Of a stretch of DNA of 64,000 nt, positions 6,824 through 55,392 are shown piece after piece. The notes beneath the pieces were generated by a model. The model did not search any database and had not been told where the DNA came from. It saw only the letters and a program-made list of their open reading frames with translations. The position numbers and the translations under genes are program-made. Source of the DNA: Geosiphon pyriformis uo1 (lineage: Eukaryota > Fungi > Glomeromycota); contig JAAOMT010000400.1 in the NCBI GenBank assembly GCA_016748015.1, positions 310,001 to 374,000 of the forward strand. Direction: 5' to 3'. Position 1 is the stretch's first letter; each line of letters starts with the position of its first letter.

Positions 6824-6825
6824 TT

Positions 6826-6840
6826 TGGTGCTCTCTGTAA
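6826..6840 (+). promoter_or_regulatory. Primer-binding site of B1 (TGGTGCTCTCTGTAA)
   Basis: TGG start 2 nt after the LTR end, complementary to a tRNA 3' CCA end. Confidence 0.75.
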
Positions 6841-6887
6841 AATATAATCTAACAGAAAACTAACACCAACAACAATCATTCAAAACA

Positions 6888-12800: not shown

Positions 12801-13795
12801 ACACTGAATTTAAATAGTGGTTACTAACAAGTAGTCATGAATTCAGCCAACAAAGAAAAGATTGTATTCACCACCAAAAAGAGAAACTTTGAGTTTGAAA
12901 TAATACCATTTGGCTTAACCAATGCTCCAGCCACTTTCCAATGGCTAATAAAAATTGTTTACACTAGACTACTATGAAAATCAGTAGTTATGTATTTGGA
13001 TAACACTAATGTGTTCTTAAAAACATTTGATAATCATTTTCATTATTTACAGTAAGTGTTTGAAAAACTAAGACAAACAAAGCTAAAGTTAAATGCCACT
13101 AAATGCTTTTTTGGTAAAACAGAACTGAAATTTTTGAGATATGTCATAAGCAAAAATAACATCAAAACAAATCCAGATAAAATTAAGATAATAAAAAACT
13201 TTTTAGTATCAACAAATTTGATAGAACTATGAGCATTCTTGGAATTTGTTGAATATTACCACTGCTTTATTCAGAATTTTTCCAAACTGGTTCAACCACT
13301 TAACTAGCTCCAAACCAAAAATGTGAAATATAAATGGACAAAAACTTAGCAAGAAGCTTTTGATATACTAAGAAGAAAGCTTATCTAAGTTTTAATACTG
13401 ATCTATTCAAATTATACCAAGTCATTTATAATCATTACTGATACATTTGGTTAAGCATTGTGAGCCATACTATTTCAAAGAAGACCAGATGATAAGAATA
13501 TTCAGTAGTATACACCAGCTAAAGTTTGAGTTTAGCTAAAAAGAACTATGGAATGTTAACACTAAAACACTTAGCTATCTATTGGGCAGTCATCAAATAG
13601 AAAGAGTATTTAAGCCAAAAGTTTGATATATATACTGATCACAAAGAATTGACATCAATCCAGAAGTAAAAATTTGAAGATAATTGTCATATTAAATAGA
13701 AAATAGAACTTTTATCATTCAAATATACAGTACATTATAAAAAGAGAAAAAAAAATGAAAATGTTAACAGTTTGTCATGAATAAAACAAATCTAA
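6888..13795 (+). pseudogene. gag-pol: B1 gag-PR-Cys-dUTPase-RT-RNaseH polyprotein, heavily decayed
   Basis: ORF fragments 6920-7264 (N-domain), 8991-9230 (protease) and 10789-11148 (dUTPase remnant KIAQTIF). RT remnant FCVDYRKLN near 12690 and YLDN near 12992. Confidence 0.82.
11258..12168 (-). mobile_element. Solo LTR inserted in B1 pol
   Basis: TGTTACAGG…TAACA termini, with R/U5 homologous to B/D/G LTRs. Flanks TCAT and CCAC fit a CCAC TSD with two C>T changes. The host reading (NLYI…KNNKHIKI) rejoins across it. Confidence 0.85.
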
Positions 13796-13825
13796 AAACA
13801 TTTTAACTCTAAAATATAACAAAAA

Positions 13826-14975
13826 ATGAACACACAAAAATATTTACAATTTCAACATTATATTAATATTTAATAATTCAAGAGAAAATTATCTCAAAAG
13901 AAATTAAACAACATAAAACAACAATCAAAATATTTTATTACTCACCAAAATATACTATATTAGAAAAACAAAAAAAATCCAGATTAACTACTCAAAATAA
14001 TCACAAAACCAAAGAAAAAAACAATACTATACAACATGTACTCAGATCTAACAGCAGAACATTTTCATAAAAAAACAATCATAAAAAGAATCAAAAAAAG
14101 ATATTATTGGCTATTAATATATTTAGATATTATCTAATACATTCAAAATTGTAATACTTGTCAAAAAAAAGAAGGAATAAGACCCAATAAATTACTAAAA
14201 CCAATTAGAATGAGATAACTATTTGATTGAATTGGAATTAACTTAGTCAGACCATTAACAATAACTAACAAAAACAATTGTTATATAGTAGTAATCATGA
14301 ATTATTTCACAAAATAGCCAGAAGTGAAAGCAATTCAAAGAGCAGATGCAGAATCTATAGTCAAATTTGTTTACCAAAATTTGATTTGTTAACATAGATG
14401 TCCAAAAAAATTATTATCAAACCAAGAAATCTACTTTGTAAACAGAATATTAACAGAATTAAGTCAAAGATTTAGAATCAAAAAACCATTATTATTATTA
14501 TATCATTTATAAACAAATGGCTTAGTTAAAAAGTTCAACAGAACATTGTGTGAAACAATAGCAAAAATCAGCCAAGAAAACCAAAATGAATGAAATTTGT
14601 TTATATTATCAATACTATTTGCTTATCAAACAATGAAACAAGATACTACACAAGCAACACTATTTGAACTTGTTTATGATAAAACAGCAATATTACCAGT
14701 GAAAATAGACATCAACACATATCCAACTGAACCAATAATAGAAGGCAACTTTCAAAAAACATTGCTAAAAAAACATATAACTTAATAAAAACTCTAGAAA
14801 ACAAAAGATAAAAAACAGTTAAAAATATACAAAAGTCACAAGAAAAGCAAAAAAAGTGACATAATAACCAACTATTAGACAAACCAGTTAAATTCAAAAT
14901 TGAAGACAAAGTACTTTTACATTATACCAAAGTAGAAAAACAATGGAATGGAAAATTCGATCTCAAATGAGATGG
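13826..14975 (+). pseudogene. B1 integrase (separate ORF), truncated
   Basis: ATG at 13826 (MNTQKYLQ). HHCC remnant (H..H..CNTC) and core remnants IGINLV and QTNGLV; ORF fragment 14597-14785. Confidence 0.8.
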
Positions 14976-16017
14976 TATTACTGGAAGTTTTTGGTCTTTT
15001 TTCTTGAATATTGTTAATATCTATTTGTTGTGACTTTACATTTTCTGAAAGTAGTTGAACCTTTGATAACTGAATTTATCTTCAAATTATCTCTTATAAT
15101 TTAAACTACTGGGCTTATAAGTGGAATAGCCAATTTTATGCCAATTACTTTGTGTAATTATGTTGTAGTAAACATCAATTTTTTCCCAAAAATTGCTCAT
15201 CTGGAAGCTTACTAAAATGTATAGTTACTTTGCTGTGAAAATCAACTCTTCTATAAAAATCTTGTCTATAAGCTACTCTAATAATTATTATAAAAAAAAT
15301 AGAATTTTGTTAAGGAAAACGTTTTCTATTCAGGCCTGAAGTTACTAACAGATTACTGAAATTGGTAGCTAATTAATTTTAAAATGTTAGTTGTATTGAG
15401 GGAATTTCAAGTGTAATAATCAAAGAATTTGGTTTTTGAATATTTAATTTTTATTTGATATGTGTAAAAAAAAATTTGTTTCAATTAAGATATCTAAAGT
15501 AAGATACTATAGTAAGATACATTTTCTTGAAAAAAGAAGCTTTTTTTTATACAACTTGTTGTAATATTAGTCTTTGAACTTGCATTTTTCTTTTTGCTAT
15601 AATTTTGGTAAACTAAAGATACATTTTAACAAACTACAAGTTATTTCTACAAATTATTAATTATTTCGGCCAATTTTTATTAATTTCAGCAAATTTTGAC
15701 TATATTAAATAGTTCAGAGTATTGTGTAATTTGATTATTTTAATTTCTATAGTACAAATCAAATTATTAATTGAATAATAATATTTGATAATTGGATTAA
15801 ATAATAAGTGATAATTAAAATGATAATAATATATACTAATTAATAATAAAAATTATAAAGATAACTTCATATTAATTAATAGCTAAAATTTTACTGGTAA
15901 TATAATCTTCTCTTTAAAACTGAGCTTTGTCAAAGTCCAAGTATTATCTGTGATGTTAAAATAGTGGTCCAAAATAATTGAAGTAATCTGGTTAAAAATT
16001 GTTAAAATTTCAGTTTT
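14976..16017 (-). mobile_element. A': 3' LTR (14976-15902) plus PPT and ORF3 end of an A-family element, truncated at about 16017
   Basis: The reverse complement aligns with 36825-37904 of element A (ORF3 end, GAGCTCAG motif, PPT, LTR). Confidence 0.87.
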
Positions 16018-17401: not shown

Positions 17402-18395
17402 TGTTATCAGTAGAATTTTAGCTATCAATTAGCATGAAATTACTCTTATAATTTCTATAAATTAATTAATATATTAATATTATTTCAAATTATCACTTAT
17501 TATTTAATCAATTATCACATATCACAATTCAATTAAATAATCCAATTAGTATGACAGAAAGTAGAATGATCAAATTACACAATACCCTGAACTTTGTAAC
17601 ATTCTAAAATTCGCCGAAATTTACAGAAATTCGCCGAAATTTATAAAAATTCGCCAAAATTATGAATAGTTCACCCAAATTAATCAATAGTTCAGTGAAA
17701 TAACTTATAGTTCATCAAAATGTATCTTTAGTTTGCCAAAATTTAAGCAAAGAAAAAAAGTGCAAGTCCATAGACTAGTACTACAACAAGTTGTATAAAA
17801 GAAGAGCTTTTCTCTTTAAGAAAATGTATCTTACTTTAGATTTATCACTTAGAATCATTCCTACACACAAAAAAAAGAAATAAATATCAAATAATTCGAA
17901 AAACCAAATTCTTTAATTATTGCACTTGGAACATCCCCAAAACCCAACTAGCATTTTGAAATTGATTAGCTACCAATTTCAGTAAACTGTTAGTGACTCC
18001 AGGCCTGGATAGAAAACGTTTCCCTTGACAGAATTCTATTTCTTTTACATTTTTTTTACTTTTCTTTTATTTTCTTATTATAATTATTAGGGTAGTCTAC
18101 AGACAAGATTCTTGTAGAAGAGTTAACTTTCACAACAAAGTAACTACACATTTTTAGTGAGCTTCCAGATGAGCAATTCCTGGGAAAGAGTTGATGTTTA
18201 CTACAATGTAACTACATAAAGTAACTGGCAAGAAATTGCCCATTTCACTTATAAGCCCAGCAAATTCAAATTATAGAAGATAATTTGAAAATAAATTCAG
18301 TTACTGGAGGTCCAACTACTTCCTAGAAACGTAAATTCACAGCAAATCAACATTAACAACATTCAAGAAAAGAGACCAAAAAACCTTCAGTAACA
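17402..18395 (+). repeat. 5' LTR of A
   Basis: Near-identical to 36942-37904. Has 3 copies of a 20-bp AATTCGCCGAAATTTACAGA-type unit, against 2 in the 3' LTR. Confidence 0.95.
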
Positions 18396-21400: not shown

Positions 21401-21776
21401 TGAAATAATTTTTGACCTAGCAATAGCATTAATCAATAGAGCTATACAAAAAGATGTCCACCAAATGAAAGAAGCTGAATACATTGAGTATATCATAGAA
21501 TTAACTGGATTTGATTATGAAGATAAAGTAGAAACCTACCACCAAATTGCAAGTCACACATATTCGACCCAAGAAGCTCAAATTCAATGATTAGAGCAAA
21601 TAAACATTCAATTATGTAAAGAATACATCATGCTTTGTAATGACAAATGGTGTTCAGAATACTATGCTCTTAGCATTCTCCTGCCTAGTGAAAATAACCA
21701 GAAAGAAATTGAATTTGGGAAACCAGAAACAAAAGAAGAAATTGCAACCATACTAATTTATCTTACTAAAAACCAG

Positions 21777-22606
21777 TGTTACGGTTTAAGAATTTAGTAA
21801 AAAGAATCATAAAAATAATACAAATTATTCAATCATAATATAGCACAGTAATAATTTTAGAAAGGTAATAATTAACATAGTAGCAAACACCATCTCACGA
21901 TAGTGGCAAGCACCAGTTCACAATAGCAGCCAACACCAACTGGTGATAGCAGCAAACACCAGGTTGAAATATCAAAAAAAAAGTATTTTCTCATAGAACT
22001 ACAAACATGTATATATACAGTAGTTTTAATATTGGGAAATAATCAATCAAGTAATAAAAAATCATAACTTATCAAATCATACTTTCAAATTAAATATCCC
22101 AAGAAACCTTTAAAAATCAAAAAGAAATGAAAAAGAATATTTAAAACGGAACTATCACAACCCAAAGTATTAAGAAACTTACTTGTATTATTTATTGAAT
22201 GAAACTATCATTCATCAACTGAATCCCTTGGAAGAATAATCCTTGATCAAAATTATTCACGTTGTTACTAATTGATAAAAGCTTTATTGTGAGAATTAGA
22301 AAAGCACTAAAGACTATTAACATTCTGTGTTTCTAGATTAGAGAAACACATCAGGCAATTGCAAAGATAGCCTCAGAGAAGACCCCAGACAGTGGATAGA
22401 TTTCAGTTCAGCCTCTAAGAAAGAGTACATAAACACACACAACAATTAAGAATTAAAGAATAACTTATATCGCAACAGTAAAAAGAAAGCCTTCAGTGTA
22501 ACAGTGACATTATCACACAAATAGAATTGAAGAACTCACAAAAGACTGATTGCAATTAAAGCAAGATATCAGCAATTAAATATAACAAGAAAACCATCCT
22601 GTAACA
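21777..22606 (+). repeat. 5' LTR of E
   Basis: Matches 31494-32361 except for a 38-bp indel and transition substitutions. Confidence 0.95.
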
Positions 22607-22608
22607 TT

Positions 22609-22625
22609 TGGTGAACCCTACGAGG
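22609..22625 (+). promoter_or_regulatory. Primer-binding site of E (TGGTGAACCCTACGAGG)
   Basis: TGG start 2 nt after the LTR. Its complement ends …GGGUUCACCA. Confidence 0.8.
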
Positions 22626-22688
22626 AAAAAAAATCAAAAAGGAAATAATAATTAGCAATAATTCATTGCTAAAAAGGAAAAGACAAAA

Positions 22689-25600
22689 GTGGTGACAAAA
22701 ACCCCTAATCTTACTGTTCTTGAATTTTGCCGTGCTATTTACACACAAAATCAAAGTGATCTTGGATTACCAAAAGGGTGTTGTCCAGCAGAATCTGCCC
22801 TCACTTATTATATCAACGCCAGAATAAATTATCATATAGGAAAGGAAGAAGAACCACACGACGCAAAACTTGGATTGTATAGAGAATTATCACAATACAC
22901 TACAAAAGAAGTAGCAGTAATAGCCGCAACTATTGTCAAAATCCATCGAGAAATTGAGCAATACGCCAACAAAAATTTTCTAATATCCACAGGAAACACT
23001 AGGGAACACGCCAACAAAACCAAAGAAAATTTAGAAACTAATCAGGAAAGTAACCAGCAAAAACTAGGAACACCAGCTCAAACGCCAAAGAAAACTGTCA
23101 CTCAATCAATAAAGAAACAACGTATTTATTCACCAGAAGATAAATCATACCATTTTTCACTAGAAAATAAGATACAAATTCCATTAGGAGCTGCATCATC
23201 ATCAACATCAACTCCACAAATGCCAAAAACTCCTAGTTATATTGATAAAATTAAACAACGTAACTGGGGAGACATACCAATTACAGGAGGATATTCATCA
23301 CTATTCCAAAACCCTCTTTTTCAGCCAAAATTTAGAACGGGGTTTGAAAACCGTGAAGAGGAGTCTGAATCGGAATCCGAAAAAGAGACCAGCGAAAAAA
23401 CAATCACAAGACCAGTCACTGAAACAAGCAGCCAGTCCAGAAACCAAGAAACTCGTGATTAAGAGGAAGAACCGGATATAAGGGAAGCCACCTTTAGGAA
23501 CGCTCAAGGAAATATCATCCCACCTCCTCTTAAACCAATAAACCCACCAGCAGAAAACGGCAATGAAATGACCACACCATATATTATAAGACTAACAGAT
23601 TTCTCAGGAGAGGAAGAAGAAATGGATGTGCACACATGGCTCAGAGAAGCACAAAAAGCCATCCAGGCAAATAACTGGAACAACCAAAGAGCAATTCAAA
23701 CATTACCTTTCTTCCTGAAAGGCACAGCCGACTCGTGGTATTAAAGCCTGGAAACAAAACCCACGAGCTTCGCCAAATTTAAAAATGCACTCCTGGAGTA
23801 TTTTAGCGACCCAAATGCCGTAATCCAACTACAGAACGAATTCAATACTATCAAGCAAAATACCAGTGAAACTGTCACCCAATACCTTGCTCGATTCAAT
23901 CAAATTTGCCATTAAATTGAAATGATTGAACAAGAATACTACACTGATCCTCAGGTCTGTCTCTTATACACATCTCAAGAATTCCTCCAAATTGAGCCAG
24001 ACAATACCACCAGCAGTTGCCACCGAAAATAGCAGCCTCGCAGCTATTTTTCCTTTTGAATTAGAGGAAAACAAGGCTATGTTCAGTGGAGCAGCATTGG
24101 ATGAAAAACACCCAATCACTGCTATGTATACAGAAGCCACTGTAAACAATACCCCAATTAAACTTATCTTAGACAGCGGATCCGCTGGAAGCATCGTAAC
24201 GCTTCAACTAGTAAACCAACTGGGTTTCAAAGTTGATCGTGCCGCGACGTCCCAAATCATAACAGCCAATGGAAGTACAAAGCTGCCTCATGGCGAAATT
24301 GACTCATTCCCTTTCGAAATTAATGGCATAGTAATACCTACAAAAGTATTAGTAATGGATGCTACACAATATCAAGCGTTAGTAGGGAATGACTGGCTAA
24401 CAAAAGCCAATGCCACCTTAGACTGGACCACCCAAGAGCTTCTGATCAATTATAATGGCCACCAGGCCAAAATTCCAGCCACCTGTGGCCACTTCTAAAA
24501 ACCCAGTGCCAACCAAAGACCTACCTTNNNNNNNNNNNNNNNNNNNNTCAGATTGAAGCGATTGAACAAGGATACTACACTGATCCTCAGGTTTTAAATC
24601 AGTTTATTAGAGGATTAAAAAGCAGCATTTTAGGAAGAGTACGTCCTGCCCACCCTAATTCCTTACCAGAAGCCGTTACGCTCGCCAGAGCCCTTGAATC
24701 AGCTGAGAAAGAAGCTAACCATAGTCAAATAGTTAACATGGTAATGGAGGAAAATAAGACAGAAACATTAAAGAAAAGAGTAACGCGATTAGGGGAGGAA
24801 CTCTTTAAGAAAATAGAAAGTTACCTCATCCCGGATCCGAGAAAAAATACATACCAACCACTTCAAAGACGCAGCCAGGAAGTCAGCAACAGTCGAAATA
24901 ATCGCTCGTTGCGCCAGGAATTCAGAACAGAAACACACGCCTGCCATTTTTGCAAACGCGTAGGACATTTGATTAGTCAATGTCGAACATGAATGATGCA
25001 GGAAGCATGCGAAAATAATTACTACGTGCCACTCCAAATGTCCAGAAGCCAGTACATGCCAATACCACGCCAATATTCTACCACGTATCAAAATCAAAGA
25101 GCTTACCAGCAACAGCCCATGATAGCCAACCCGAATTGGCGTTCCGAGGCCCGAAATCAGCCCATGTAGAACCAAAACGCATTGGTCCAGAGGAATTCAA
25201 ACCGCGCCAGAACCAATCAGCAAACCAATCCAAACTACCAAAATTATCAACAAACTTACCTTAATATACCGGAAAACCTGATCATCGGAAACAATGATGG
25301 TAGAAACATAAACAGAACCAAAAATTCCTCCAAATTGAGCCAGACAATACCACCAGCAGTTGCCACCGAAAATAGCAGCCTCGCAGCTATTTTTCCTTTT
25401 GAATTAGAGGAAAACAAGGCTATGTTCAGTGGAGCAGCATTGGATGAAAAACACCCAATCACTGCTATGTATACAGAAGCCACTGTAAACAATACCCCAA
25501 TTAAACTTATCTTAGACAGCGGATCCGCTGGAAGCATCGTAACGCTTCAACTAGTAAACCAACTGGGTTTCAAAGTTGATCGTGCCGCGACGTCCCAAAT

Positions 25601-28600
25601 CATAACAGCCAATGGAAGTACAAAGCTGCCTCATGGCGAAATTGACTCATTCCCTTTCGAAATTAATGGCATAGTAATACCTACAAAAGTATTAGTAATG
25701 GATGCTACACAATATCAAGCGTTAGTAGAGAATGACTGGCTAACAAAAGCCAATGCCACCTTAGACTGGACCACCCAAGAGCTTCTGATCAATTATAATG
25801 GCCACCAGGCCAAAATTCCAGCCACCTGTGGCCACTTCTAAAAACCCAGTGCCAACCAAAGACCTACCTTCAAATTTGAGGAAAATCCAGCACTACCAGC
25901 CATCAAAACCTATCAGCTCTCTTGGGCTGATGACCAAAGAACAGGACTACCAGCCATACCAACGTGGACCAGCGAAGAAAGATCTGAATGGAACCAGGTA
26001 AGTTCACAAAGAAACCACCAGCGATGCAGACCAAAGCTAGAATGTTTGGTTTGCAAGAAGAAACTCTTGTCTATGACTATGTGCAGCACACCAGACGAAG
26101 ACCCAAGAAACCCCACCCACTACTATTGTAACCATTGTAACAAAGAAAAATATGGTTACCCAGAAAGACACGGAAAATGGGACGAGGAACCGTGCCTCGC
26201 TTGTGGAGAACCGTTACCAAGAAGGTGCGACTGAAATGACTTACCAGGCAGAGGAGGAACATGTGACGCAACTTGCCAATACACGATCCTCATCTGTGAC
26301 TGGGTAAGAGGAGGAACGCCATTCAAAGCAGCGTTCAACAGAGCATTAAAAAGACTACAGCACTACCCACACAATGAGGATGAGTTGTACAACACCACAC
26401 AAGCCAAAGTAAGAGGAGGAACTGCCGAAGAAATACGACGTTGGAAAGAGTCAGCCAAAGTAGCCGACAAAGTCACCAACTACAACATGTTCGACCCAGT
26501 GGACGAATTCCAGGACTACTACCAACAACTATGCCTCACTCGACAAGAGCAAGAACAATACCTTGCCCAAATCAACACTTACCTCTGCAAAAACTGTCTC
26601 ATTCCATGCCAAAATCAGTGCTGTGAAGAGTGTCAAGACGAAAGGGACTTAGAAAGAAAAATGGAAATTGAGAATCAGCAGTCTCAAAATCAATCAATAA
26701 ATCAACAAGACTCACCTGACGGTCCCGAGTCAGAAAAATTTGTAGCCTATACTGACCTAGAACAGGTGACCGACATCCAATACTTCGACAACGGGCACTT
26801 AGGAATAATATCCGAAAGAGCCCATCCAACCAACGCCGGATTCGATCTACGTTATCTGGAAGACCAATCCACAACATTACCACCCAGGAACATCACCAAA
26901 ATCGACCTAAAAATAGCAGTTGAAATTCCGCCAGGAATAATGGTTCAAATGGCGTCGCGATCAAGCCTCGTGAAAAAAGGAATAAGTATTCAAGGAGGAG
27001 TAATTGACTCCGAATACACTGGAAATTTGATGGTTTTGCTACAGAACAATTCAGAAAAGCCTTATACCATTGAATCTAAGGAAAAGATTGCACAAGCAAT
27101 TTTCCTATCATTGGTAAAAATTGGGAAATTTGTGCCAGTAGAAAATTGTGAGGAATTGTCACAAACAACGAGAGGAACTTTTGGTTTCGGATCGATAGGA
27201 AAAGGAATTGAAGCGAATTTCACTGAAACAATAGAGGAAAAAGGCGAAGTAATTAAAAATGAGTGGTCCATCACGCTCCTATCATATGGAAAATCAGAAA
27301 TAAGAATAAAAAGGACAATTAAAAAAAAAGACCTAATATTTGAGCCCTACCCAGAAACTTGCCAACAGTTTCTCATAGGACTTACTAACCTTTTTATTCC
27401 AGCTGATAAAGCTCAATGGATAAAAATTCCTATTGCAAACACCACAGAAGAACCCGTCTACATTCCGGAAGATACTATCATTGGATACCTCGGAATAGAA
27501 CTAGAAAACGCGTCAACACCACAAGAAATTCTAAATTTTCCAGAAATTGCCCTCTACTGTGAACTCACTTTAATAAATTGGCAACAACTGGTAGAATGCT
27601 ATCAATTTACGCCAGAAGAATTGGCCAAATTAAACATTGGAACAATGGATCCTGACCAACAGCGACAATTAAAAGCATTAATTTTAAAATACTCTGATAT
27701 ATTTTCAAGAAATGGCGAATTTGGAAGAACCAACTTGGTTCAACACCAAATCCCCACTGGAGACGCCAGATCTGAAAAACAACGCACTTACCATGTCCCA
27801 CCAATGGAGCATAATTTTATCAGAGAAGAAGTCCAAAGCATGTTAGAAAAAGGAATAATACAACCATCAATGAGCCCATGGTCCTCACCAGTTGTTTTAG
27901 TAAAGAAAAAGAACAGAAAAATTAGATTTTGTGTCGACTATCACAAACTAAACAGCAAAACAACCAAAGACTCATACCCAATACCGTTAATTGACGAAAT
28001 CTTCGACGTTTTTGGAGGAGCAAAATGGTTTTCTACACTGGACTTGACCAGTGGGTACTGGCAAGTGGAAATGGACCCAAAGAACAGGCATAAAACAGCA
28101 TTCACAACACAAAATGGCAATTATGAGTTCAATGTAATGCCATTTGGATNNNNNNNNNNNNNNNNNNNNNNNNNNNNNNNNNNNNNNNNNNNNNNNNNNC
28201 AAAGACTAATGGACGTAATTTACTCCAGAATCCTGTGGCAATCCGTTGTTGTCTACTTGGATGATACAAATGTTTTCTCGTCAAAATTCACAGATTATCT
28301 CCAACATTTACAACAAGTTTTTGAGAGATTGAGACACACTGGACTTAAACTAAATCTAGAAAAATGTTTCTTTGGGAAAAATAAGCTAGTATTTTTAGGA
28401 CACGTAATTGGAAAAGATGGAATAAAACCAGATCCATCAAAAATAGACAAAGTGAAAAATTTTCCAGTACCTCGAAACGTTTTAGAAGTTAGAAGCTTTT
28501 TAGGACTCGCATCTTACTATCGCCGCTTTGTAGAAAACTTTTCAAACATCACCAAACCCTTTAATTACCTACTATCTAAAAATGTGAAGTTTGAATGGAC

Positions 28601-29060
28601 TGAAGCACAACAAAAAGCTTTTGAGTATCTTAGACAAAAGCTCATTGAATCACCAATAATGATCTATCCGAATTTCAACAAGAAATTCATTTTGGCCACA
28701 GATGCCTCTGGAACTGGACTTAGAGCCATTCTGTTACAAAAAGATGATAATAGAAGAGAACATATAATCACTTATGTCAGCAAAAGTCTCAGTACGGCAG
28801 AACAAAACTACGCAGCACATGAACTTGAATGCTTAGCAGTAGTCTGGAGTTGTGTTCACTTTGACACATATTTACGGTACCAATCCTTTGAGATTACGAC
28901 AGATCATAGAGGTCTGGTCTGGTTAAATAACAAGAAAGCGCTAAAAGGAAAATATGCCAGATGGTCACAAACGTTAGCACCATACGATTATATTATCAAA
29001 TACAAAGAAGGTACCAAAAATGCTAATGCTAACTGTTTGTCAAAAATGAGACACACATAA
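22689..29060 (+). pseudogene. gag-pol: E ORF1: N-domain, Gag, CCHC, protease, Cys-rich domain, dUTPase, RT and RNase H in a single frame with a few nonsense changes
   Basis: Fragments 22689-23462, 24738-24992, 25182-25841, 26046-26234 and 26385-29060 are all in the same frame. Motifs CHFCKRVGHLISQC, LILDSGSAGS, AGFDL, RSS, GGVIDSEYTG, KIAQ, RGTFGFGS, YLDD (28254-28265), TDASG, ELECLA and TDH. Confidence 0.93.
23957..23975 (+). other. Nextera/Tn5 mosaic-end adapter remnant (assembly artefact)
   Basis: Exact CTGTCTCTTATACACATCT, joining gag to a duplicate of the protease region next to an N gap. Confidence 0.97.
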
Positions 29061-29092
29061 AAAAAATCACCAACCCACCTGCCACAACAACA

Positions 29093-30895
29093 ATGAACAA
29101 CCACCTTTACAAAAACCTCAGCCAATACTTGGAAACACTACAAATAGACGAAGAAATGCCAGTAAAAAAGCTAATTAAGCTCCAAAAATTAGCAAAACAC
29201 TATTTCATCCAAAATCACATACTTTATTACCGGAATCGACAAAATCCAGATAATCCATTAAGAGTTATAACCACGGATGAAAAAGAAACTATCTTATTTA
29301 ACATGCACTCAGATATTCATTCAGGCCACTTTGGAAAAACAGCAACCATCCAACGTGCAATTAGCCGTTACTATTGGCCAAAAATGAGTTCAGACATAAT
29401 CCAATACATAAGAAATTGTGACCCGTGCCAACGAAGAGGAGGAGCAAAAACAACGGAATTATTAAGACCAATAAAAGTTGGACAGCCATTTGACAGAATC
29501 GGAATTGATTTAGTTGGACCCTTACCAATAACAACAAGAAACAACCATTATATTGCAGTAGCCATGGACTATCTCACCAAATGGCCAGAAGCTAGAGCTA
29601 TTAAAACAGCTGATGCTATTTCCATAGCTCAATTCATACATAAAAACTTNNNNNNNNNNNNNNNNNNNNTTACCTGTTGAACTTACTATCCCAACTTATC
29701 CAAGTGACACTATCATGGAAGCAACATTCCAGGAAACACTACTTAGAAGAACATACGAATTAATGAGAACTTTAGAAAACAAAAGAAGAAAAGCAGCACA
29801 AAATATTGAACAATCACAAGAACAACAAAAAGTGAGACATGATAACCAGTTACCAGATAATATAATTAGCTACAAAATTGGAGATAAAGTATTGTTGCAT
29901 CGTATAAAAAAGATGTGTATAAGAGACAGGATTTAGTTGGACCCTTACCAATAACAACAAGAAACAACCATTATATTGCAGTAGCCATGGACTATCTCAC
30001 CAAATGGCCAGAAGCTAGAGCTATTAAAACAGCTGATGCTATTTCCATAGCTCAATTCATACATAAAAACTTAATTTGCCGACATGGATGTCCACAAGAA
30101 TTGCTATCAGATCAAGGCACACACTTCGTAAACAGCACCTTAAAAGAACTTAGCCAAAAATTTGGAATCAAGCGACCACTGTCATCACCATACCACTCTC
30201 AAACAAATGGATTAGTTGAAAGATTTAATCGCACATTATGTGAATCACTGGCGAAAATTAGTAATAAACATGAAAAAGAATGGGATTTGTTCATACCAGC
30301 AGTACTACTAGCATATAGAACAGTAAAACAAGATACTATACAATTCACACCGTTTGAACTAGTTTATGGAAGAAAAGCCACATTACCCGTTGAACTTACT
30401 ATTCCAACTTATCCAAGTGACACTATCACGGAAGCAACATTTTAGGAAACACTACTAAGAAGAACATACGAATTAATGGGAACTTTAGAAAACAAAAGAA
30501 GAAAAGCAGCACAAAATATTGAACAATCACAAGAACAACAAAAAGTGAGACATGATAACCAGTTACCAGATAATATAATTAGCTACAAAATTGGAGATAA
30601 AGTATTGTTGCATCGTATAAAAATGGAAAAACAGTGGAGTGGAAAATTTGATCACAAGTGGAATGGACCATTTTATATTCATGAAATACTTGGAAATAGA
30701 GCATACAAGTTAAAACTAGATGATAAAATATTAAGAAAAGCAGCACATGGTAACCGGCTGAAATTCTATTACAGTAAACCAGTAATAACAACAAAAACAC
30801 CCAGAATTGGAACACAATTACCTTTAATTCTACCAGAACAAATTCCACGAGATTTAGAACCAATAGTTTTAATTGAACATTATTCGAAAAAATAA
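29093..30895 (+). pseudogene. E integrase (separate ORF), locally duplicated by gap-fill artefact
   Basis: ATG at 29093. HHCC motif (HSDIHSGH…CDPC), catalytic core IGIDL / SDQG / QTNGLVERFN, GPF motif (KWNGPFYI), stop at 30895. Confidence 0.9.
29911..29929 (+). other. Nextera/Tn5 mosaic-end adapter remnant (assembly artefact)
   Basis: Exact AGATGTGTATAAGAGACAG at the junction of two overlapping integrase segments. Confidence 0.97.
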
Positions 30896-30979
30896 TTAAT
30901 TTTAGATCACAGCAAAAATGATTTAACAACCATAAAAACGCATGCAAAAGATTCCAAAATAACAGTCAAAATTAAAACA

Positions 30980-31480
30980 ATGATACTTATTCCAGAAAAC
31001 ATCAACAATATAACTCAACAATTAGTTGAAAGCTTACAACAATTAAAATCCGATCTAGAAATCACAGTTAATAGCTCCAAAATAACATACATAAAAAGAA
31101 CAATAGAAAATCCAAAAACAAGAAAAGAACATAATTTCGAACNNNNNNNNNNNNNNNNNNNNATACAAACATTATACTCAAAAGACTTAACTAGAGTGTT
31201 TGACAAAACAACTATCCAACTATTAGAACCTTTCATTGGAAAAACCAACATTACATTCCATTCACAAACAGTTTACAGAATTTTCAAAGCATTTGAAAAC
31301 TGTCACAAATTATTGTTGGACCCAACCATGAACATAATAACAACCAACAGTATTGGACGACTTACCAACTTGCAATTTCAAGAATTACAACAACAAATTA
31401 ATAACACAGTATTGAACCATTATAGTAACTTAGAATTTAATGAAGAAATTAACTTCGATTTCGACGGAGCTCAATCTTGA
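30980..31480 (+). CDS. E ORF3, unknown function, in the env position (spans an N gap)
   Basis: ATG in AAAACAATG context, ending at the PPT. Homologous to ORF3 of A, D and I. Confidence 0.75.
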   Translation: MILIPENINNITQQLVESLQQLKSDLEITVNSSKITYIKRTIENPKTRKEHNFEXXXXXXXIQTLYSKDLTRVFDKTTIQLLEPFIGKTNITFHSQTVYRIFKAFENCHKLLLDPTMNIITTNSIGRLTNLQFQELQQQINNTVLNHYSNLEFNEEINFDFDGAQS

Positions 31481-31493
31481 AAGGAGGGGATAA

Positions 31494-32361
31494 TGTTATG
31501 GTTTAAGAATTTAGCAAAAAGAATCATAAAAATAATACAAATTATTTAATCATAATATAGCACAGTAATAATCTTAGAAAGGTAATGATTAACATAGTAG
31601 CAAACACCATCTCGCGATAGTGGCAAGCACCAGTTCACAATAGCAGCCAACACCAACTGGTGATAGTAGCAAACACCAGGTTGAAATATCAAAAAGAAAG
31701 TATTTTCTCATAGAACTACAAACATGTATATATATAGTAGTTTTAATATTGGGAAATAATCAATCAAGTAATAAAAAATCATAACTTATCAAGCAACAGA
31801 TCCAATTTTATCCAACAAACTCCACTTTAAATCATATTTTCAAATTAAATATCCCAAGAAACCTTTAAAAATCAAAAAGAAATGAAAAAGAATATTTAAA
31901 ACAGAACTATCACAACCCAAAGTATTAAGAAACTTACTTGTATTATTTATTGAATGAAACTATCATTCATCAACTAAATCCCTTGGAAGAATAATCCTTG
32001 ATCAAGATTATTCATGTTGTTACTAATTGATAAAAGCTTTATTGTGAGAATTAAAAAAGCGCTAAAGACCATTAACATTCTGTGTTTCTAGATTAGAGAA
32101 ACACATCAGGCAATTGCAAGGATAGCCTCAGAGAAGACCTCAGACAGTGGGTAGATTTTAGTTCAGCCTCTGAGAAGGAGTACATAAACACACACAACAA
32201 TCAAGAATTAAAGAATAACTTATATCGCAACAGTAAAAAAAAAGCCTTCAGTGTAACAGTAACATTATCACACAAATAGAATTGAGGAACTCACGAAAGA
32301 CTGATTGCAATTAAAGCGAGATATCAGCAATTAAATATAACAAGAAAACCATCCCGTAACA
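31494..32361 (+). repeat. 3' LTR of E
   Basis: Preceded by PPT GAAAGGAGGGGA and followed by TSD CCAG. Confidence 0.95.
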
Positions 32362-34709
32362 CCAGCCTGCTATACAACTCAAATACTTTAACAACAATAG
32401 AAAAGGAATAAAACCAGAAAAAGTCTACGAAATTAATGCAAGATATAACCTAAGATATCCTGGCAAAGACACTTTGATTCTCCAACCAAAATCTTTAACA
32501 AAAATCAATCTCAAAATCGCTCTTGAAATTCTACCTGGAGCAATGGTTCAAATTGCATCCAGATCATTATTGGCAAGCAAAAAAATCAATGTCAAAGGAG
32601 GAATTATAGATGCAGAATATACTGAAGACATTACTATCATGTTGCAGAATGAAACAGACAAACCATTCAAGATTGAACATGCTGAAAAAATTGCCCAAGC
32701 AATTTACCTACCTTTAATCAACATTTCGGGTTTACAATCAATTAATAACAGAGAACAATTGGGAAAAAGTGAAAGAGGAATACAAGGTTTTGGTTCAACT
32801 GAACAATTTACAGTACCAGTAAACATAGCTCTTAATATACAAAATGAATCTTACCAGATTCTTCAACTTCTACAACCAATTACCATTTCACCTTTTGGAG
32901 AATATCACAAAATTTACACTTGCTTAAAACCCACTACTACTCAACAAATTTTTGAATCCAATGAACAAATTTGTTTGAAGCATGAAATATCAATTCTAAA
33001 CGTTTATATTCCCAAAGAAATAAAAAAATTTTGAGTTATATTCTACAACCCCAATAATTATCTTATTGTCTTATTAAACAAATTAGAAATTGGAATCATA
33101 CACAGCAATATTTTTCAAGATAAAAACCCTCAAATTGTCTCTAATTTCATCGAAATTGTAAAGCACACTCTACTCCCAAATCCAAATATTATTTCTACCA
33201 CTGAAAACTACCATCTTTTGGAAGAAAAACTCTCTTGAATCAACATGAGTCCCTTGGAACCCCAACAACAAAGACAATTGAAACAATTAATAGCTGAATT
33301 TGCAGATATATTTGCAAAAGACAACAATAACTTGGGAAAAATGGATATTGTTCAACATCAGATCCATACAGGAGATGCTCCACTAAAATGTTAGCAAGCT
33401 TACAGAGTGCCACCTGTCAGCCACCAATTTATTAGAGAAGAAGTCCAAAGAATGCTTAATAACGAATTGATTCAACTATCAAGAAGTTCTTGGGCCTCAC
33501 TAGTAGTCCTGGTTAAAACGAAAAACTGAAAAATCAGATTTTGTGTTGACTATCGCCAACTGAATAGTGTGACAATTAGAGATGTCTACCCTTTTCCAAG
33601 AATTAATAACATGCTAGATGCTCTAGGAAAAGCCAAGTTCTTTTTAACTTTAGACTTGGAAAGTGGATACTGGCAAGTCGAAATGGACCCAAAAGATAGA
33701 CCCAAAACAGCATTCACCACTCAAAGAAGAAACTATGAGTTCAATGTTATGTCTTTTGGACTCTGCAATACACCAGCAACATTTTAGCAACTCATGGATG
33801 TTGTATATGAAAGGCTCTTGTGGCAATCAGTAGTTGTCTATCTTGATGATACTGATGTATACTCACCAAGCTTTGAAGCCTATCTCATTTACCTGCGAGA
33901 AGTTTTTCAACAATTATGGAAAGCAGGATTAAAGTTAAACATTGAGAAATGTCACTTTGGAAAAACAAGCTTGATTTTTCTTGGACACATAGTTAGTAAA
34001 GATGGAATCAAATCAAATCCAGGAACAATCAGTGCTGTCAAAAACTTTCAAATCCCCAGAAATACCACAGAACTAAGAGGATTTGTAGGATTAGCCTCTT
34101 ACTATCAAAAATTCATTAAAAAATTCTCAGAAATTGCCAAACTACTCAATTATCTTATCAACAAAAATGTGCCATACAAATGGACTGAAGAACAACAAAA
34201 AGCTTTTGAAACTCTCAAAACAAAATTGACAACAGCCCTAGTTTTTGCTTATCTAGACTTCAACAAATAATTCTAATTAGCCACTGATGCTTCACACATA
34301 GCATTTGGTGCCATTTTATCACAATTGAATGAAAATGGCCAGGAACAAATTATTGCCTATGCCAGTAGAACACTCAAGCCAACAGAACTCAAATATGGCT
34401 CAACTGAATTGGAAGCTATTGCAGTCATTTGGGCTCTTAAATATTTTCAACAATATCTAAAGAATAGAAAAAAATTTGACATAATAATTGACAATATTGG
34501 CCTCAAATGGCTTAATAAAAAAAAAAACTGAACAAAGTGCCAAACAGTCTTGATAGAATGACTTCCTAGCAGACTACAGATATATTGTACATCACAAACC
34601 AATAAAACTACACACCAATGTTGATAGTCTCTTAAGAATAAGACAAGACTAACACCAACAACAATTCCATTATAACTTACTAACCTACCAACAAAATAAC
34701 CAAACAACA

Positions 34710-36254: not shown

Positions 36255-36961
36255 ATGATTATTGCTTGAAATATTCAACAAATATCCCAAAAGTTAATGT
36301 TAGCCTTGAAAACACTTCCTGACTTATCCATAACAATTAATCGAAGTCAAATTAATTATATTTAGAAAAAAACCACAGCCCCAGTAGTAAATCATCCACA
36401 GAACTATCACCCCTATAGAAAAAAACAAAAAGTCACTCTGAAAATAGGTTACTAAGACTTTTGAAGCAAGCACTAAAAGAAAATCTTTTAATTGCCCCTA
36501 TTGACATTTCACCAAATGCTACAATGCAACAAAAACTTCTACTACTTCTCAATGAACAGAACAATGAACACACCCCTATCTATAAATACTTTCACATTGA
36601 AAAGACACTTTATGAACAAAAACTGGAACTTGAAGCAACAAATTTTACTCCTGAAGCTATACAAAAACAAATTCACAATGAATTTAAAACAGCAGCTGGA
36701 CCAACAAACACTTGCTACAAACTTAGAACAGCTTTTAGACTTTATGATTTGTTTAATACTTGTGAAAATATTCTACAAAATCCAATACTGCAACCAATGA
36801 AAATCCAATATATTGGCAAACTCACAAAACTAAAATTTCAACAATTTTCAGACCAGATTACTTCAATTATTTTGGATTACTATCTCAATATCACAGATAG
36901 TGCTTGGACTTTGACAGAGCTCAGTTTTGAGGAGGAGATTATGTTACCAGTAGAATTTTAG
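36255..36961 (+). pseudogene. A ORF3, unknown function, frameshifted; runs through the PPT into the LTR
   Basis: ATG at 36255 (MIIA*NIQQISQKL…LSITINRSQINY). C-terminal ORF 36461-36961 is homologous to E ORF3. Confidence 0.72.
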
Positions 36962-37904
36962 CTATTAATTAGCATGAAATTACTCTTATAATTTCTATAA
37001 ATTAATTAGTATATTAATATTATTTCAAATTATTACTTATTATTTAATCAATTATTACATATCACAATTTAATTAAATAATCCAATTAGTATGACAGAAA
37101 GTAAAATGATTAAATTACACAATACCCTGAACTTTGTAACATTCTAAAATTCACCGAAATTTACAGAAATTCGCCGAAATTATGAATAGTTTACCCAAAT
37201 TAATCAATAGTTCAGTGAAATAACTTGTAATTCATCAAAATGTATCTTTAGTTCACTGAAATTTGATCAAAAAGAAAAAGTGCAAGTCCATAGACTAGTA
37301 CTACAACAAGTTGTATAAAAGAAGAGCTTTTCTTTTCAAGAAAATGTATCTTACTTTAGATTTATCACTTAGAACCATTCCTACACACAAAAAAAAGAAA
37401 TAAATATCAAATAATTCGAAAAACCAAATTCTTTAATTATTGCACTTGGAACATCCCCAAAACCCAACTAGCATTTTGAAATTGATTAGCTACCAATTTC
37501 AGTAAACTGTTAGTGACTCCAGGCCTGGATAGAAAACGTTTCCCTTAACAAAATTCTATTTCTTTTACATTTCTTTTATTTTCTTATTATAATCATTAAG
37601 ATAGTCTACAGACAAGATTCCTGTAGAAGAGTTAACTTTCACAGCAAAGTAACTACACATTTTTAGTGAGCTTCCAGATGAGCAATTCCTGGGAAAAAGT
37701 TGACATTTACTACAATGTAACTACATAAAGTAACTGGCAAGGAATTGGTCATTCTACTTATAAGCCCAGCAAGTTCAAATTATAGAAGATAATTTGAAAA
37801 TAAATTCAGTTACTGGAGGTCCAACTACTTCCTGGAAACGTGAATTCACAGCAAATCAATATTAACAACATTCAAGAAAAAAGACCAAAAAACCTCCAGT
37901 AACA
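36942..37904 (+). repeat. 3' LTR of A
   Basis: Matches 17402-18395 and is followed by TSD ATGT. Confidence 0.95.
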
Positions 37905-38755: not shown

Positions 38756-39585
38756 TGTTACTCATAAAAAGAAAAAACAGATATAGAAAATAGTAGACCA
38801 ATAGGAAAGTAATAGTCAGCACATAAGCATATTGCTTAGTAATATAGAGCAATATCAGAAATCACAGCATATTGCTCAGCAATGTAGAGCAATGTTAGAA
38901 AATTAGGGCACATTGCTCAAGAAATTATAGCACATTGCTCGAGAATGTGAGTAATCTCATAGAATATTAATTATGTATATATATAGCAGTAGTATTAAAA
39001 GAAGAAAAGACAGATCTTTCAGTTTAGATTTGATTTAAGCAACCTTCTATTCACAAATATCAATAAATAATTATTCACTATCTTAATCTACTTTCTACTA
39101 TCAATATAAAGTGTTAATAGTAATTGATACTTAACTACACTGGAACAATAGCTCTTGATTATGGCTATTAACAAGATACTAGCACTTATTGCCTTGGCTT
39201 GTTTCTTTATTTCTTTTTATTTTTTTTGTTATTTTTTTTTGTTTTACTAATTGATTAAAGAGAAAAAGCACTGAATTATTAACATCAAGAATAATCTGGT
39301 AAAAAACTCCAAAGAAAGAGTATAATATTGAGAATTTAAGAATAGTTTATTAGAAAAGCATTTTTGCTAGATTACTGATTACTATGCTGAAAAAGAAATT
39401 GGACAAAATTGCAATTCTGGGAGATTACTGAAATAACTATTGAATCTCTGTTTATTATACAAAAAACTTCACAACAAAACCTTCAGATCAACCAAAACTT
39501 TTAGATATTAACATCATTATATCAATTAAGCACCAAGTTATAAGTTTGTTATTTGCTTTGAGACCCCAAGTAATTACTTGTAATA
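38756..39585 (+). repeat. 5' LTR of D
   Basis: Collinear with 55393-56222. U3 carries GCACATTGCT-type tandem units. Confidence 0.93.
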
Positions 39586-39647
39586 TTTGGTACTTCTTGT
39601 AAGATATAATCTTACAAAGAACCAGTACCAACAACAATCATTCAAAA

Positions 39648-42600
39648 GTGGCAGAATCAGAAATAATAAGAACAAACCATTTAGAATTTGCTAAATTCTT
39701 ATTTTAATAATACAGCAAACAATTAGGCTTAACCAACAACCATTATCCAGCAGAATCAGCTTTTAATTTTTACATCAATAAAAGAATCACAGATTTTCTG
39801 AAAAGACCAGTTGACATTGAATCAGCAAGAAAAAATTTCTATACAGATTTAATTCAACACACCAGCCTATTATGAAATCACAGTTTTGCACCAATTATCA
39901 AAGAAATTAATCAAGAAATTAAAAGATACACTTAACAACAATTTCCTATCACCTATGTAGATAAAGGTAAAGAAAAGTTACAAACACCAGTAGCAACTCC
40001 AAAAAAAATACAATTACTAATGTAGAAGAAGCAAAGAATTGAATCTTTCCTACATCCATCATATTATCATATACCTGGAAGTACCATTAACATCTCATTA
40101 GCAGGCACGTCTACATCAAATGCGACATTAGCATTTGGACAACTCTTATTTCAAAGTAAACAAAAGAAAGCAGAATTATTAGGAACTTATGGCAATTACT
40201 TTGAAAGATTTAAATTGCAATCACCAATATCATCAGGATTTTGATCACCACCACCCCAACCAAATTTTGAAATAGCTGATCTGTGAGAGATAATGGCATC
40301 AGAAGAAAAGGATAAAGAGGATCAAGAATTTAATTATTAAAACCTGATTTCAAAAAACCCAGAAATTGAAAAACTGAACAATTTAAACTCCAATAATATT
40401 AATTAGCAAAATCAGAATAATCAAAACCCCAATTTAATTAATTAGCTGAACTTATCTCCAGAAATTGGCATCAATTAGCCATTCATTGAACTGATTTAGC
40501 AACCATTTTAACAACCTCACTTATTACCAGTACAACAATTACAACCAATTATGCAAATAACATATGTATCAATTATAAAACTTGAAAAATTCATGGGCAA
40601 AGAAAATAACACTTAAGTATGGCTCAATAATATGGAAAAAGCCATCGCAGCTAATGGATAGAATAATGTCCAAGTCATACAAGCCATTCCATATTTTTTT
40701 TAAAATACTATCAACTCTTGATATCAAAGCTTGGCTAACAAACCCCAAGATTTCAATACATTCAAGCTTGTATTTCTGCAATATTTCAGCAATAATAATA
40801 ACATCAATCAATTGGTTAACACTTTTACCACCATCAAGCAAGAAAAAAATAAAGCAATCACTACTTATTTAGAACATTTCTACAGAAATCTGCACCAAAT
40901 TCAGGCCATACAGGCTGATTATTTTACAGTGCCACAAATTCTAAATCAATTCATTAGAGGCCTGCACAATAGCATCCTCCAACATGTACATCTAATGCAT
41001 CCAGCAGATCTTCAAGCTGCAGTTACAAATGTCAGAAATTTTGAAACAGCTAAACTTCAAGCCAATCATGTCCAAACTGTAAATTTAGTGATGAATAGAT
41101 CATCTGACTTGGATTCCAAATTGAAGCAATTCAGTAAATCAATCAATCAGAAATTAGAGAAATACTTAGCTAACAACAATTAGGCAATTTATCAATCTCT
41201 TCAATGATGCAATAATCAAGGAAACTCTAATTATACCCAAAATCAACCATGTTCAGCATCAGCAACCAATCATTAGTGGCAGCAGAAAATGCATATATGC
41301 CACTATTGTAGTAAACAAAGACATTTGCAATTTGAATATCAAAAAAAAATAAGTGATCTAAGATCAATTAATCAGTATTGAAACTCTGATTACTAAATAC
41401 AAACTCAGAATTACATCAGTAATCAATTACCAGAACAATACCAACTTCAATTACATTACTCTCTGGTGATACAGCCAATTTATCAAATCCCAATGATGCA
41501 GCAATTATACTCACCTCCAGTATATCAGTCTCTAGCATTAATCTATTAACTGACAACACCCATAATCTATCAACCACCATAGCCACAAGTAATTTATCAG
41601 ACACTGACAATTTTAAACCCAAACTCAGCTTAAATAACATCAGAAAATTCCAGATTCAGAGTTATTCAAAGCTGGAGATTGGTAATGGTTGTTCACCAAC
41701 TGATTCTCAGCTTCTTAAACCAGCCATCAAAATCATAACAGTAGAGTTCAGGAAACAAGTATACCCAAAACCCAAGTTTCCAGAACTATTTAAGTCTCCT
41801 AATAATTTCAGAAGATGCCTTATCCAACAACACAGAACCCAACCAAAAACAACCACCTACTAGCAACATACCTCCAGCCACTGTGACCAATGACAAATTA
41901 CTTGCAGCTATCTTTCTGTTCAAACTTGAGGAACTGACATCCATGCTCTTGTTCAGTGGAGCCATGCTTAAAGAAAAACCAATCACCACTATGTACACAA
42001 ATATTAAAGTGAATGGTCATCTCATCAAACTGATCCTAAATAGTAAATTAGCTGGCAGTATTATCACAAGACAACTCAATTAGGTTACCAAGTTGATTGT
42101 GCTGTCAGTGCTAGGATAATAATAGCTGATAGAGTGACCAAAACCCTTATTGGTGAGATTGATAACTTCCCATTTGAAGTCAATGATATTATTACATCCA
42201 TCAAGGTTTTGGTAATAAAAGCTATGCAGTATCAAGCACTAGTTGGTAATGACTAACTAGTTAAAACCAATTCTGTGCTCAACTGGAACATACAGAAACT
42301 ACAGCTCAGTCAGGATGACTATGTGTAACCATTTCAAACCAAACAACACCATATTAGCACCACTAATCAAATTTGAGAAAGAAAAAAAGAAACCCACCTG
42401 AGAAGTTTACCAAGTCTCATGGGCCAATGAAGACCATAATGAGCTACTACCAATACTCTTTTGAGATGACAATAAGAAAAAAAAGCAAAAAAAAGAACTT
42501 ACCTGGAATTTTGACCAAAGTTTGAGGAACTAACAATGACCAAGAAGAGCTAATAACTTAAGAGAGGAAAAAAAGTAATAAGGGAAAAGAAAAAGAGAAG

Positions 42601-45600: not shown

Positions 45601-45807
45601 TGTTATCAAATGAAAAAATACTTGAGTCAAAAATTTGATGTGTATACTGATTATAAAAGATTGACTTCAATCCAGAAGCAAGAATTTGCAGATGATCATT
45701 ATGCCAGATAGAAAATAGAGCTTTCATCATTTAATTATATGATACATTACAAAAAAGGAAAAGAAAAAGAAAATGCCAATGAACTGTCACAAATAAGACA
45801 AATTTAA
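39648..45807 (+). pseudogene. gag-pol: D gag-PR-Cys-dUTPase-RT-RNaseH polyprotein, decayed
   Basis: Gag 40731-41183, protease 41883-42083, Cys cluster 43246-43464, dUTPase VGFDL…IIDAGY (43489-43866), RT 44661-45349, stop at 45807. Confidence 0.88.
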
Positions 45808-45847
45808 AAACATTTCAACCCAAAAATATAACAAAAGATGAATATAC

Positions 45848-47094: not shown

Positions 47095-47135
47095 GTTGAT
47101 TAAAGATACTTCTGTTTTGGGAATGATGCATTTAT

Positions 47136-48362: not shown

Positions 48363-48421
48363 GTTTGTTTGTGAAGAAGTTACTAATAATTAAGTTGGTT
48401 TAAGTTTGAGAGGTTGTACTG

Positions 48422-52600: not shown

Positions 52601-52683
52601 ATTGTTGTAACAGATATGAATAATCACCAATACAATAGGAAACAAAGTGGATTTTGACAACCTTACAGGGAACACTACTTTTA

Positions 52684-55379: not shown

Positions 55380-55392
55380 AAGGAGGAGATAA

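Follow-up and report, generated by a model that had tools for sequence, protein, structure and literature searches.

A Ty3/Gypsy-like retrotransposon clade, likely of glomeromycete fungi, with a separate integrase gene and a conserved helical ORF3

We describe a clade of Ty3/Gypsy-like retrotransposons in which Gag-Pol stops after RNase H (RH), the integrase (IN) is a gene of its own, and a third open reading frame (ORF3), coding for a helical protein, follows IN. Our point of departure was a window of 64,000 nucleotides of Geosiphon pyriformis uo1 (GenBank assembly GCA_016748015.1, contig JAAOMT010000400.1, positions 310,001 to 374,000), an AT-rich stretch crowded with nested, decayed long terminal repeat (LTR) elements, and in it the element at window positions 21777-32361, hereafter E. 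According to the reading that we favour, and to which we give a probability of about 0.6, the free IN of this one clade is likely produced by restart or downstream entry and ORF3 is likely expressed from an internal TATA promoter. This is probably a real variant lineage that has gone undescribed: no description of a separate-IN Gypsy clade was found in a full-text search of the literature, outside which lie Repbase, Dfam, GyDB, subscription journals and supplements, so that individual families may already be catalogued.

E lies on the plus strand between LTRs (21777-22606 and 31494-32361) that share 96.4% identity and TG...CA termini and differ by 30 transitions and 0 transversions; it is flanked by a 4-bp target-site duplication (TSD), CCAG, at 21773-21776 and 32362-32365. 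The 5' LTR is adjoined by a putative primer-binding site (PBS) of the TGG type (22609-22626); a tRNA gene search of the window found none. The polyprotein frame (22689-29060) opens at a probable GUG start (22689-22691), carries copy-specific stops, encodes Gag, protease (PR), a Cys-rich region, dUTPase, reverse transcriptase (RT) and RH, and ends at a conserved TAA (29058-29060). The domain order given by Pfam is Ty3 capsid and CCHC (weak), aspartic protease, dUTPase (PF00692, E-value 1.3e-23, at 26808-27194), RVT_1, RT_RNaseH, IN H2C2, rve and SH3_Tf2. Past the RH stop, an A/C-rich spacer of 32 nt (29061-29092), with neither an ATG nor significant structure, leads to the ATG of IN, which is in a different frame. 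The IN ORF (29093-30895) has the HHCC and DDE residues and a GPY/F-SH3 type C-terminus, and is broken by one assembly artefact and one copy-specific TAG. ORF3 of E (30980-31480), a divergent member of a helical family of ~140 aa, holds a 20-N gap and is followed by the polypurine tract (PPT; 31481-31493), directly before the 3' LTR. A 2.9-kb contig (run X2, record 12) joins window position 29417, early in IN, to ~31452, at the end of ORF3 and the PPT, and probably stems from a non-autonomous member of the E family that arose by deletion.

A separate, ATG-started IN after the RH stop is confirmed. The stop lies at the homologous codon in all five window copies in which the junction is preserved (13793, 29058, 34650, 45805 and, on the minus strand, 48424), the IN ATG following 30, 32, 57, 30 and 59 nt past it, respectively. 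Beyond the window we used 80 metagenome loci, the best 80 of 546, which were retrieved with IN core peptides and are therefore biased toward the lineage, not toward the state of the junction; 53 of them cover both RH and IN, and 27 are without RH in the contig. RH and IN are fused in none of the 53, and an ATG stands at the IN N-terminus in 52, so that the shared layout of RH stop and ATG-started IN put forward in the original prediction is borne out in the window and well outside it. The distance between the two genes ranges from -20 to +446 nt (<0 nt in 17 loci, 0-30 in 4, 31-100 in 21, >100 in 10), IN occurs in all three frames relative to RH (11, 19 and 22 loci), and its frame is usually closed just 5' of its ATG. 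One might suppose that the stop is bypassed by readthrough or frameshifting to give a normal Gag-Pol-IN polyprotein, the more so as the lineage seems to recode elsewhere, at an in-frame TGA-CTA upstream of RT (see below); the three frames, the variable gaps, the closed frame and the retained ATG argue against such a bypass, which we consider very improbable.

In 22 INs the HHCC and DDE residues are retained, GPY/F is found near the end in the 6 rows examined, the proteins end ~40-50 aa after it, and neither the window IN pieces nor 120 stand-alone INs have a Pfam match to a chromodomain at the C-terminus. The window IN has 1335 homologs of about its own length; the 120 with the best scores are stand-alone INs (334-408 bits), the species named among them being Rhizophagus irregularis and R. 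clarus. In a control search of longer proteins, 4 of 120 hits reached at least 245 bits, all of them glomeromycete gene models, and in 3 of the 4 the end of RH, the beginning of IN or both are missing, a pattern that a predicted intron across the junction would produce. In the IN tree, the "fused" R. clarus model is nearly identical to a stand-alone R. clarus IN. One model speaks against a strictly separate IN: in P0169 of R. irregularis a complete RH is joined to IN by a linker of ~140 aa, and this could be a true fusion.

The state of the window calls for caution, as the RH stop and ORF3 might be by-products of C-to-T decay and mis-assembly. Four LTR pairs (17402/36942, 21777/31494, 38756/55393 and 45848/52684) together show 216 transitions against 10 transversions, mostly at CpA/CpT and not CpG; behind them we see a deamination process or one resembling repeat-induced point mutation, which would distort LTR dating. 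Inside E, a 19-nt adapter sequence, which we take to be a Nextera-type junction adapter, is present in two exact copies (23957-23975 and 29911-29929), beside duplications of 23976-24527 at 25319-25870, of 29507-29649 at 29930-30072 and of 29670-29910 at 30383-30623. The affected tracts are 23957-24548 (adapter, duplicated PR segment, N gap) and 29650-29929 (N gap, duplicated IN segment, adapter). Because contigs of run X1, in which DNA variation among copies was compared, moreover link the second adapter (29911) to many unrelated positions, we conclude that two parts of E are mis-assembled. Further adapter artefacts are likely in the same assembly. Of the internal stops of E, which also include one at 26232, those at 24990, 25167 and 25839 are sense codons in most other run X1 copies (3 of 3 among those listed), and the RH stop has no variant among the run X1 rows listed, a 3-nt indel in the A-run at 29059 preserving it; it is therefore likely that the frame from Gag to RH is continuous in the family and that the RH stop is original. 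Hypermutation and adapters notwithstanding, the same junction recurs in the 53 independent loci with open ORFs, including the complete-looking L023, L036, L056, L069 and L070, and ORF3 is under purifying selection (see below). Together these refute an origin of the layout in decay or mis-assembly, to which we assign a negligible probability. The five loci just named are terminally redundant contigs of 6.7-9.7 kb, apparently complete, intact members of the clade and good references for it.

Phylogenies of RT-RH were built after removal of 23 near-duplicate plant polyproteins and fragments <300 aa. In the tree of 105 rows, all separate-IN rows and two glomeromycete models form one clade (SH 99); after removal of 45 further rows, the remaining 60 give the same clade in IQ-TREE with support of 98/92, the bootstrap being not fully settled. 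Plant elements, elements with a chromodomain and the IN-first Gmr1-like ones fall outside the clade, and the IN tree agrees with it (SH 96). The window dUTPase families form a subclade (100/99); their three complete elements (21777-32361, 17402-37904 and 38756-56222) have LTRs without blastn match to one another's, and their PBSs differ, as expected of the multi-family lineage with unrelated LTRs that had been proposed. That the lineage is wider and older than the window alone shows is supported. Two points limit this picture. The RT clade falls among Gypsy-type polyproteins in trees without named GyDB references or a non-Gypsy outgroup, and its placement inside Metaviridae is for that reason tentative. 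Further, the named relatives of the window elements are Glomeromycotina, and a glomeromycete host is likely, with host names covering a minority of the sub-branches. It is also likely that these are elements of arbuscular-mycorrhizal and related fungi.

ORF3 is found between IN and the PPT or LTR in five places of the window (in E, at 36.3-36.96k and 54.7-55.4k, and on the minus strand at 63k and 46.4-47.1k), and in all five it ends at or runs into the PPT/LTR. An iterated profile detected the ~140-aa family 3' of IN in 33 of the 80 metagenome loci, and in 22 of the 32 with at least 800 nt after IN; a wider profile raised the first count to 37. At 50% identity the family comprises 643 clusters, and the homologs with a named source are from Rhizophagus and Dentiscutata. 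In 7 of 7 ORF3 pairs substitutions are most frequent at the third codon position, a bias from which we conclude that ORF3 is under purifying selection, and the conserved third ORF of the original prediction is upheld. The window ORF3s are linked to the family by hhalign (probability 77.5, E-value 1.9e-5) and to the ORF3 of L001 by tblastn (E-values of 7e-12 to 7e-4 in four copies, with aligned motifs shared), the minus-strand one being tied to it weakly.

Two AF2 models of ORF3 (pLDDT 96 and 82) share an eight-helix order. No transmembrane segment was found in any of 30 members (no 19-residue window above KD 1.6), and ORF3 is therefore not env; with this, and with a dUTPase that was already known elsewhere, the "retrovirus-like complexity" ascribed to the elements is overstated. 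Pfam, PHROGs and NCBIfam gave no consistent match, single weak ones only; there was none among PDB sequences or phages. The fold had no clear match by Foldseek (pdb, viral), VIA reaching best Z values of 5.2 and 4.7 and returning weak ParB/KorB and MIT-like rows (Z 3.5-4.3), and the ESM Atlas offered weak leads only, below the level of recognition. A resemblance to DUF3102 and ParB-like HTH proteins is a tentative lead. Several of the conserved columns are Arg/Lys or aromatic, and, judged from these residues only, ORF3 would most likely be a nucleic-acid-binding regulator. Alternatively, it could be a structural adaptor that brings the free IN into the particle, and not a nuclear regulator. 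Its link to the separate-IN clade, its place directly behind IN, and a database protein (P0293) in which an rve domain is joined to ORF3 would suit an adaptor; P0293 may, however, be a mis-called or mutated gene, several separate-IN elements have no match to the ORF3 family, and a TATA promoter of its own suggests separate regulation. On balance the adaptor seems distinctly unlikely, and we keep to a regulator.

The evidence for such a promoter is a TATAWAW motif. It precedes the ORF3 ATG by 25-75 nt in 22 of 33 loci, where shuffles give 2.7 (at most 7); before the IN ATG the motif occurs in 4 of 56 loci, against 2.5 expected. About half of the ORF3 matches lie in non-coding spacers, and in the window an exact TATAWAW stands 41-46 nt upstream of the likely ORF3 start in three of five cases. 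It is likely, as far as can be read from these motifs, that ORF3 is transcribed from its own internal TATA promoter. Several observations tell against this and against a universal ORF3: about half of the matches overlap IN C-terminal codons, neither E nor the 17.4k element has an exact TATAWAW before ORF3, the first profile did not detect the family in 10 of the 32 long loci, and some loci carry other ORFs after IN (NUDIX in L015, HTH in L036).

How the free IN would be made is less directly accessible. The LTR transcript would encode Gag-Pol as far as RH, and where RH stop and IN start overlap or adjoin, IN would be translated by termination-reinitiation. Overlaps of the type TAATG occur in 5 metagenome loci and of the type ATGA in 3, and the window spacers are short, A/C-rich and without significant structure. 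Stop-restart of just these types is used by fungal RNA viruses (AUGA in victoriviruses, UAAUG in hypoviruses), from which the clade differs in that many members have long spacers; for any retrotransposon, no stop-restart translation was found in the full-text literature searched. The RH-IN spacers are poor in ATG (2 seen against 15.6 expected in 20 spacers), and the IN ATG is in a strong context, with A at -3 in 37 of 52 loci and G at +4 in 40 of 52.

In 20 of the 80 loci, once in each, an RNA motif of ~40 nt stands just 5' of the IN ATG, at 3-32 nt from it in 16 pattern matches. It consists of two stacked stems with 31 compensatory cells, a 2-bp pseudoknot being possible, and its covariation is 0.475, against 0.204 in shuffles (0 of 500) and at most 0.149 when slid. 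None of 21 short-gap loci has it, against 7 of 31 with long gaps (p 0.03, without correction for kinship). In one long-spacer branch the hairpin might guide initiation or hold the new IN on the RNA. Rfam covariance models run on 12 loci, 10 of them with the motif, gave 2 weak hits elsewhere and none at the motif; in viral contigs the motif pattern has 0 matches and IN 2 distant hits only. Two more conserved pre-IN motifs, one pseudoknot-like, were noted in L046 (3780-3830), L080 (320-370) and the spacers of L029, L053, L065 and L076.

The further steps of the proposed scheme are that the free IN would enter the particle via RNA or Gag binding, not as part of Gag-Pol, that a short mRNA, begun at the internal promoter and terminated in the 3' LTR, would encode ORF3, and that the ORF3 protein would act as a nucleic-acid-binding accessory protein in regulation or packaging. 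A number of points weigh against the scheme. Gaps exceed 100 nt in ten loci, six of them with 1-10 ATGs inside, and these are poorly explained by simple reinitiation. The hairpin is absent from the window copies and occurs mainly in one branch, with L026 and L030 in addition, and one of five covariation measures is not above shuffles (94 of 500). The calicivirus-type UGGGA signal is not enriched before IN (1 against 1.5 expected).

The main competing explanation is that IN is made from a subgenomic RNA of its own, whether through a TATA-less internal promoter, a spliced mRNA, or a processed 5' end that the hairpin generates or protects. The long spacers with upstream ATGs, the strong start context and the closeness of the hairpin to the IN ATG would all be accommodated, and there is a precedent in the foamy viruses, whose Pol is translated from a spliced mRNA and enters the particle by way of RNA signals (PMC7828637). 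Against this explanation, TATA is not enriched before IN, nor is a splice acceptor (AG in the last 30 nt in 40 of 62, where 48 are expected); in 3 of 16 cases the hairpin has a compensatory CGG instead of CAG; and stop-start overlaps that recur in several branches fit translational coupling. We regard a subgenomic RNA as a serious alternative, though a rather unlikely one, and prefer restart or downstream entry.

The defining traits of the clade are the separate IN and ORF3, and not the whole domain string that had been put forward. The dUTPase had no match in any of the 80 loci, 14 of them covering the stretch from PR to RT, nor in the minus-strand window element, and is therefore a trait of a sub-lineage only. 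It is not new: a dUTPase between PR and RT is on record for Gypsy elements of Postia, Phanerochaete and Tuber (PMC2864245) and for bdelloid elements (PMC5408684). In L069 a NUDIX domain is found between PR and RT, at the place of the dUTPase. Further captured modules are the NUDIX ORF after IN in L015 (1945-2889) and the HTH ORF after IN in L036 (6546-6944), and L023 has an extra coiled-coil-like ORF (7458-8258) ahead of ORF3.

Two other branch-specific departures concern translation. A GTG, in the same place and in an A-rich context, opens the Gag frame of four window copies (22689, 18441, 39648 and ~58253 on the minus strand); after the PBS, no frame has an ATG for 610 nt in E and 679 nt in the 17.4k element, where ~8 are expected (0 of 500 shuffles). 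The long ATG-free stretch and the conserved GTG suggest that Gag of the window dUTPase sub-lineage is translated from GUG. Elsewhere, 8 of 23 loci (L028, L029, L033, L034, L053, L054, L064 and L065) have an in-frame TGA-CTA, a known readthrough context, ahead of RT, and after PR in those loci in which a PR was found, and in six of the eight the frame is open for a further 259-1031 codons upstream. Stop-codon readthrough would be the likely outcome, giving tiers of Gag-PR, RT-RH and IN. In L052, L055, L056, L057, L058 and L060, RH is followed by a C-terminal extension of 216-343 aa, Cys/His-rich in L058 and without Pfam match in the two scanned. An HHCC-like putative zinc motif, without Pfam match in those scanned, is seen at the Gag N-terminus in the window (52104-52598, minus strand) and in L007, L036, L054, L056, L057 and L069.

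With Ty3/Gypsy the clade shares TG...CA LTRs, a 4-bp TSD, PBS and PPT, a Ty3-type capsid with CCHC, the order PR-RT-RH-IN, and the HHCC, DDE and GPY/F motifs of IN; the capsid is weak in E, and PF19259 is above cut-off in L056, L069 and L023. It differs in having IN outside Pol, with 0 of 5 window copies fused, and an additional conserved ORF3, whereas Ty3/Gypsy elements are described as encoding either one protein or two, IN being part of Pol (PMC12440569; PMC3248453). Gmr1-like elements also have IN in a rearranged position and are among the nearer long relatives of the window IN; theirs lies upstream of RT, inside the polyprotein, and they form a separate clade (100/100). Membership in Gmr1 is ruled out by this separation and by the position of IN downstream of RT here, membership in the chromoviruses by the lack of a chromodomain match, and membership in the env-bearing three-ORF elements or Errantivirus by an ORF3 without transmembrane segment and with a soluble helical model.

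Foamy viruses (Spumaretrovirinae) have an internal promoter that drives accessory genes. As is proposed for the clade, their enzyme is made apart from Gag and is packaged via RNA, and that promoter lies near the 3' end (PMC7828637); in them splicing sets apart the entire Pol and there is an env gene, whereas here IN alone is separate and env is lacking. Membership in Spumaretrovirinae is ruled out, Gag to RH being one ORF in L056 and L069 and an env-like ORF being absent. The dUTPase elements Tmt1, PosPlaTy3-5 and those of Phanerochaete, compared by description only, have the dUTPase at the same place (PMC2864245); the bdelloid three-ORF lineages, likewise compared by description, have extra ORF3s, but of env, GDSL or DEDDy types (PMC5408684); and the portions of these two descriptions that were available mention no separate IN. 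The CERV protein of Cer1, a small novel Rev-like accessory protein of an LTR retrotransposon, offers a functional analogy for ORF3, and differs in coming from a spliced mRNA (PMC10309623). Ginger and GingerRoot have a stand-alone Gypsy-like IN (PMC6839031), but with terminal inverted repeats and no RT, whereas here IN lies behind RT-RH inside LTRs; as RH immediately precedes IN in 53 of 80 loci and LTRs are present in the window, Ginger-type membership is ruled out.

E interrupts a host element of the same lineage at 17402-37904 (plus strand; LTRs 17402-18395 and 36942-37904, TSD ATGT), in which the Gag GTG is at 18441, the RH stop at 34650, the IN ATG at 34710 and the end of ORF3 at 36961. 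The third dUTPase element (38756-56222, plus strand; LTRs 38756-39583 and 55393-56222) has its RH stop at 45805 and its IN ATG at 45838, and is interrupted by a nested minus-strand element of the wider lineage (45848-53350; TSD ATAC, RH stop 48424, IN ATG 48362). The latter has a separate IN, a very divergent ORF3 and an HHCC-like Gag N-domain; neither a dUTPase nor a Cys-rich linker match was found in it, and it landed a few bases past the IN ATG of its host (45838-45847 and 53351-53354). Two partial copies complete the set, one at 6282-14976 (plus strand), which keeps the layout as far as IN (RH stop 13793, IN ATG 13826), and one at 62043-64000 (minus strand), at the window end, with the IN C-terminus, ORF3, PPT and LTR. 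Positions 1-3900 (plus strand) hold, from translation only, a decayed non-LTR (LINE-like) region with RT and RNase H.

Textbook LTR elements bring IN into the particle fused to Gag-Pol. Where, as in this clade, IN is a gene apart, its translation and packaging have to follow another route, and the clade offers a living model for the step, in either direction, between a separate DDE integrase and a fused one in LTR-element evolution. Taken jointly, the observations may point to an ancient undescribed fungal group with polycistronic, virus-like expression, in which stop-restart or a 40-nt RNA element would serve the free IN, ORF3 would be Rev/Tas-like, and GUG or UGA recoding would be branch-specific; for this combination as a whole we would put the odds slightly short of even. 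If true, it would be the first LTR retrotransposon group to package IN independently of Gag-Pol. Three parts of these elements lend themselves directly to testing, namely a protein family with hundreds of clusters and no annotation, a short RNA element with covariation, and the stop-restart junctions. Many of the "stand-alone integrase" and orphan genes in annotations of mycorrhizal fungi are likely to be parts of such elements.

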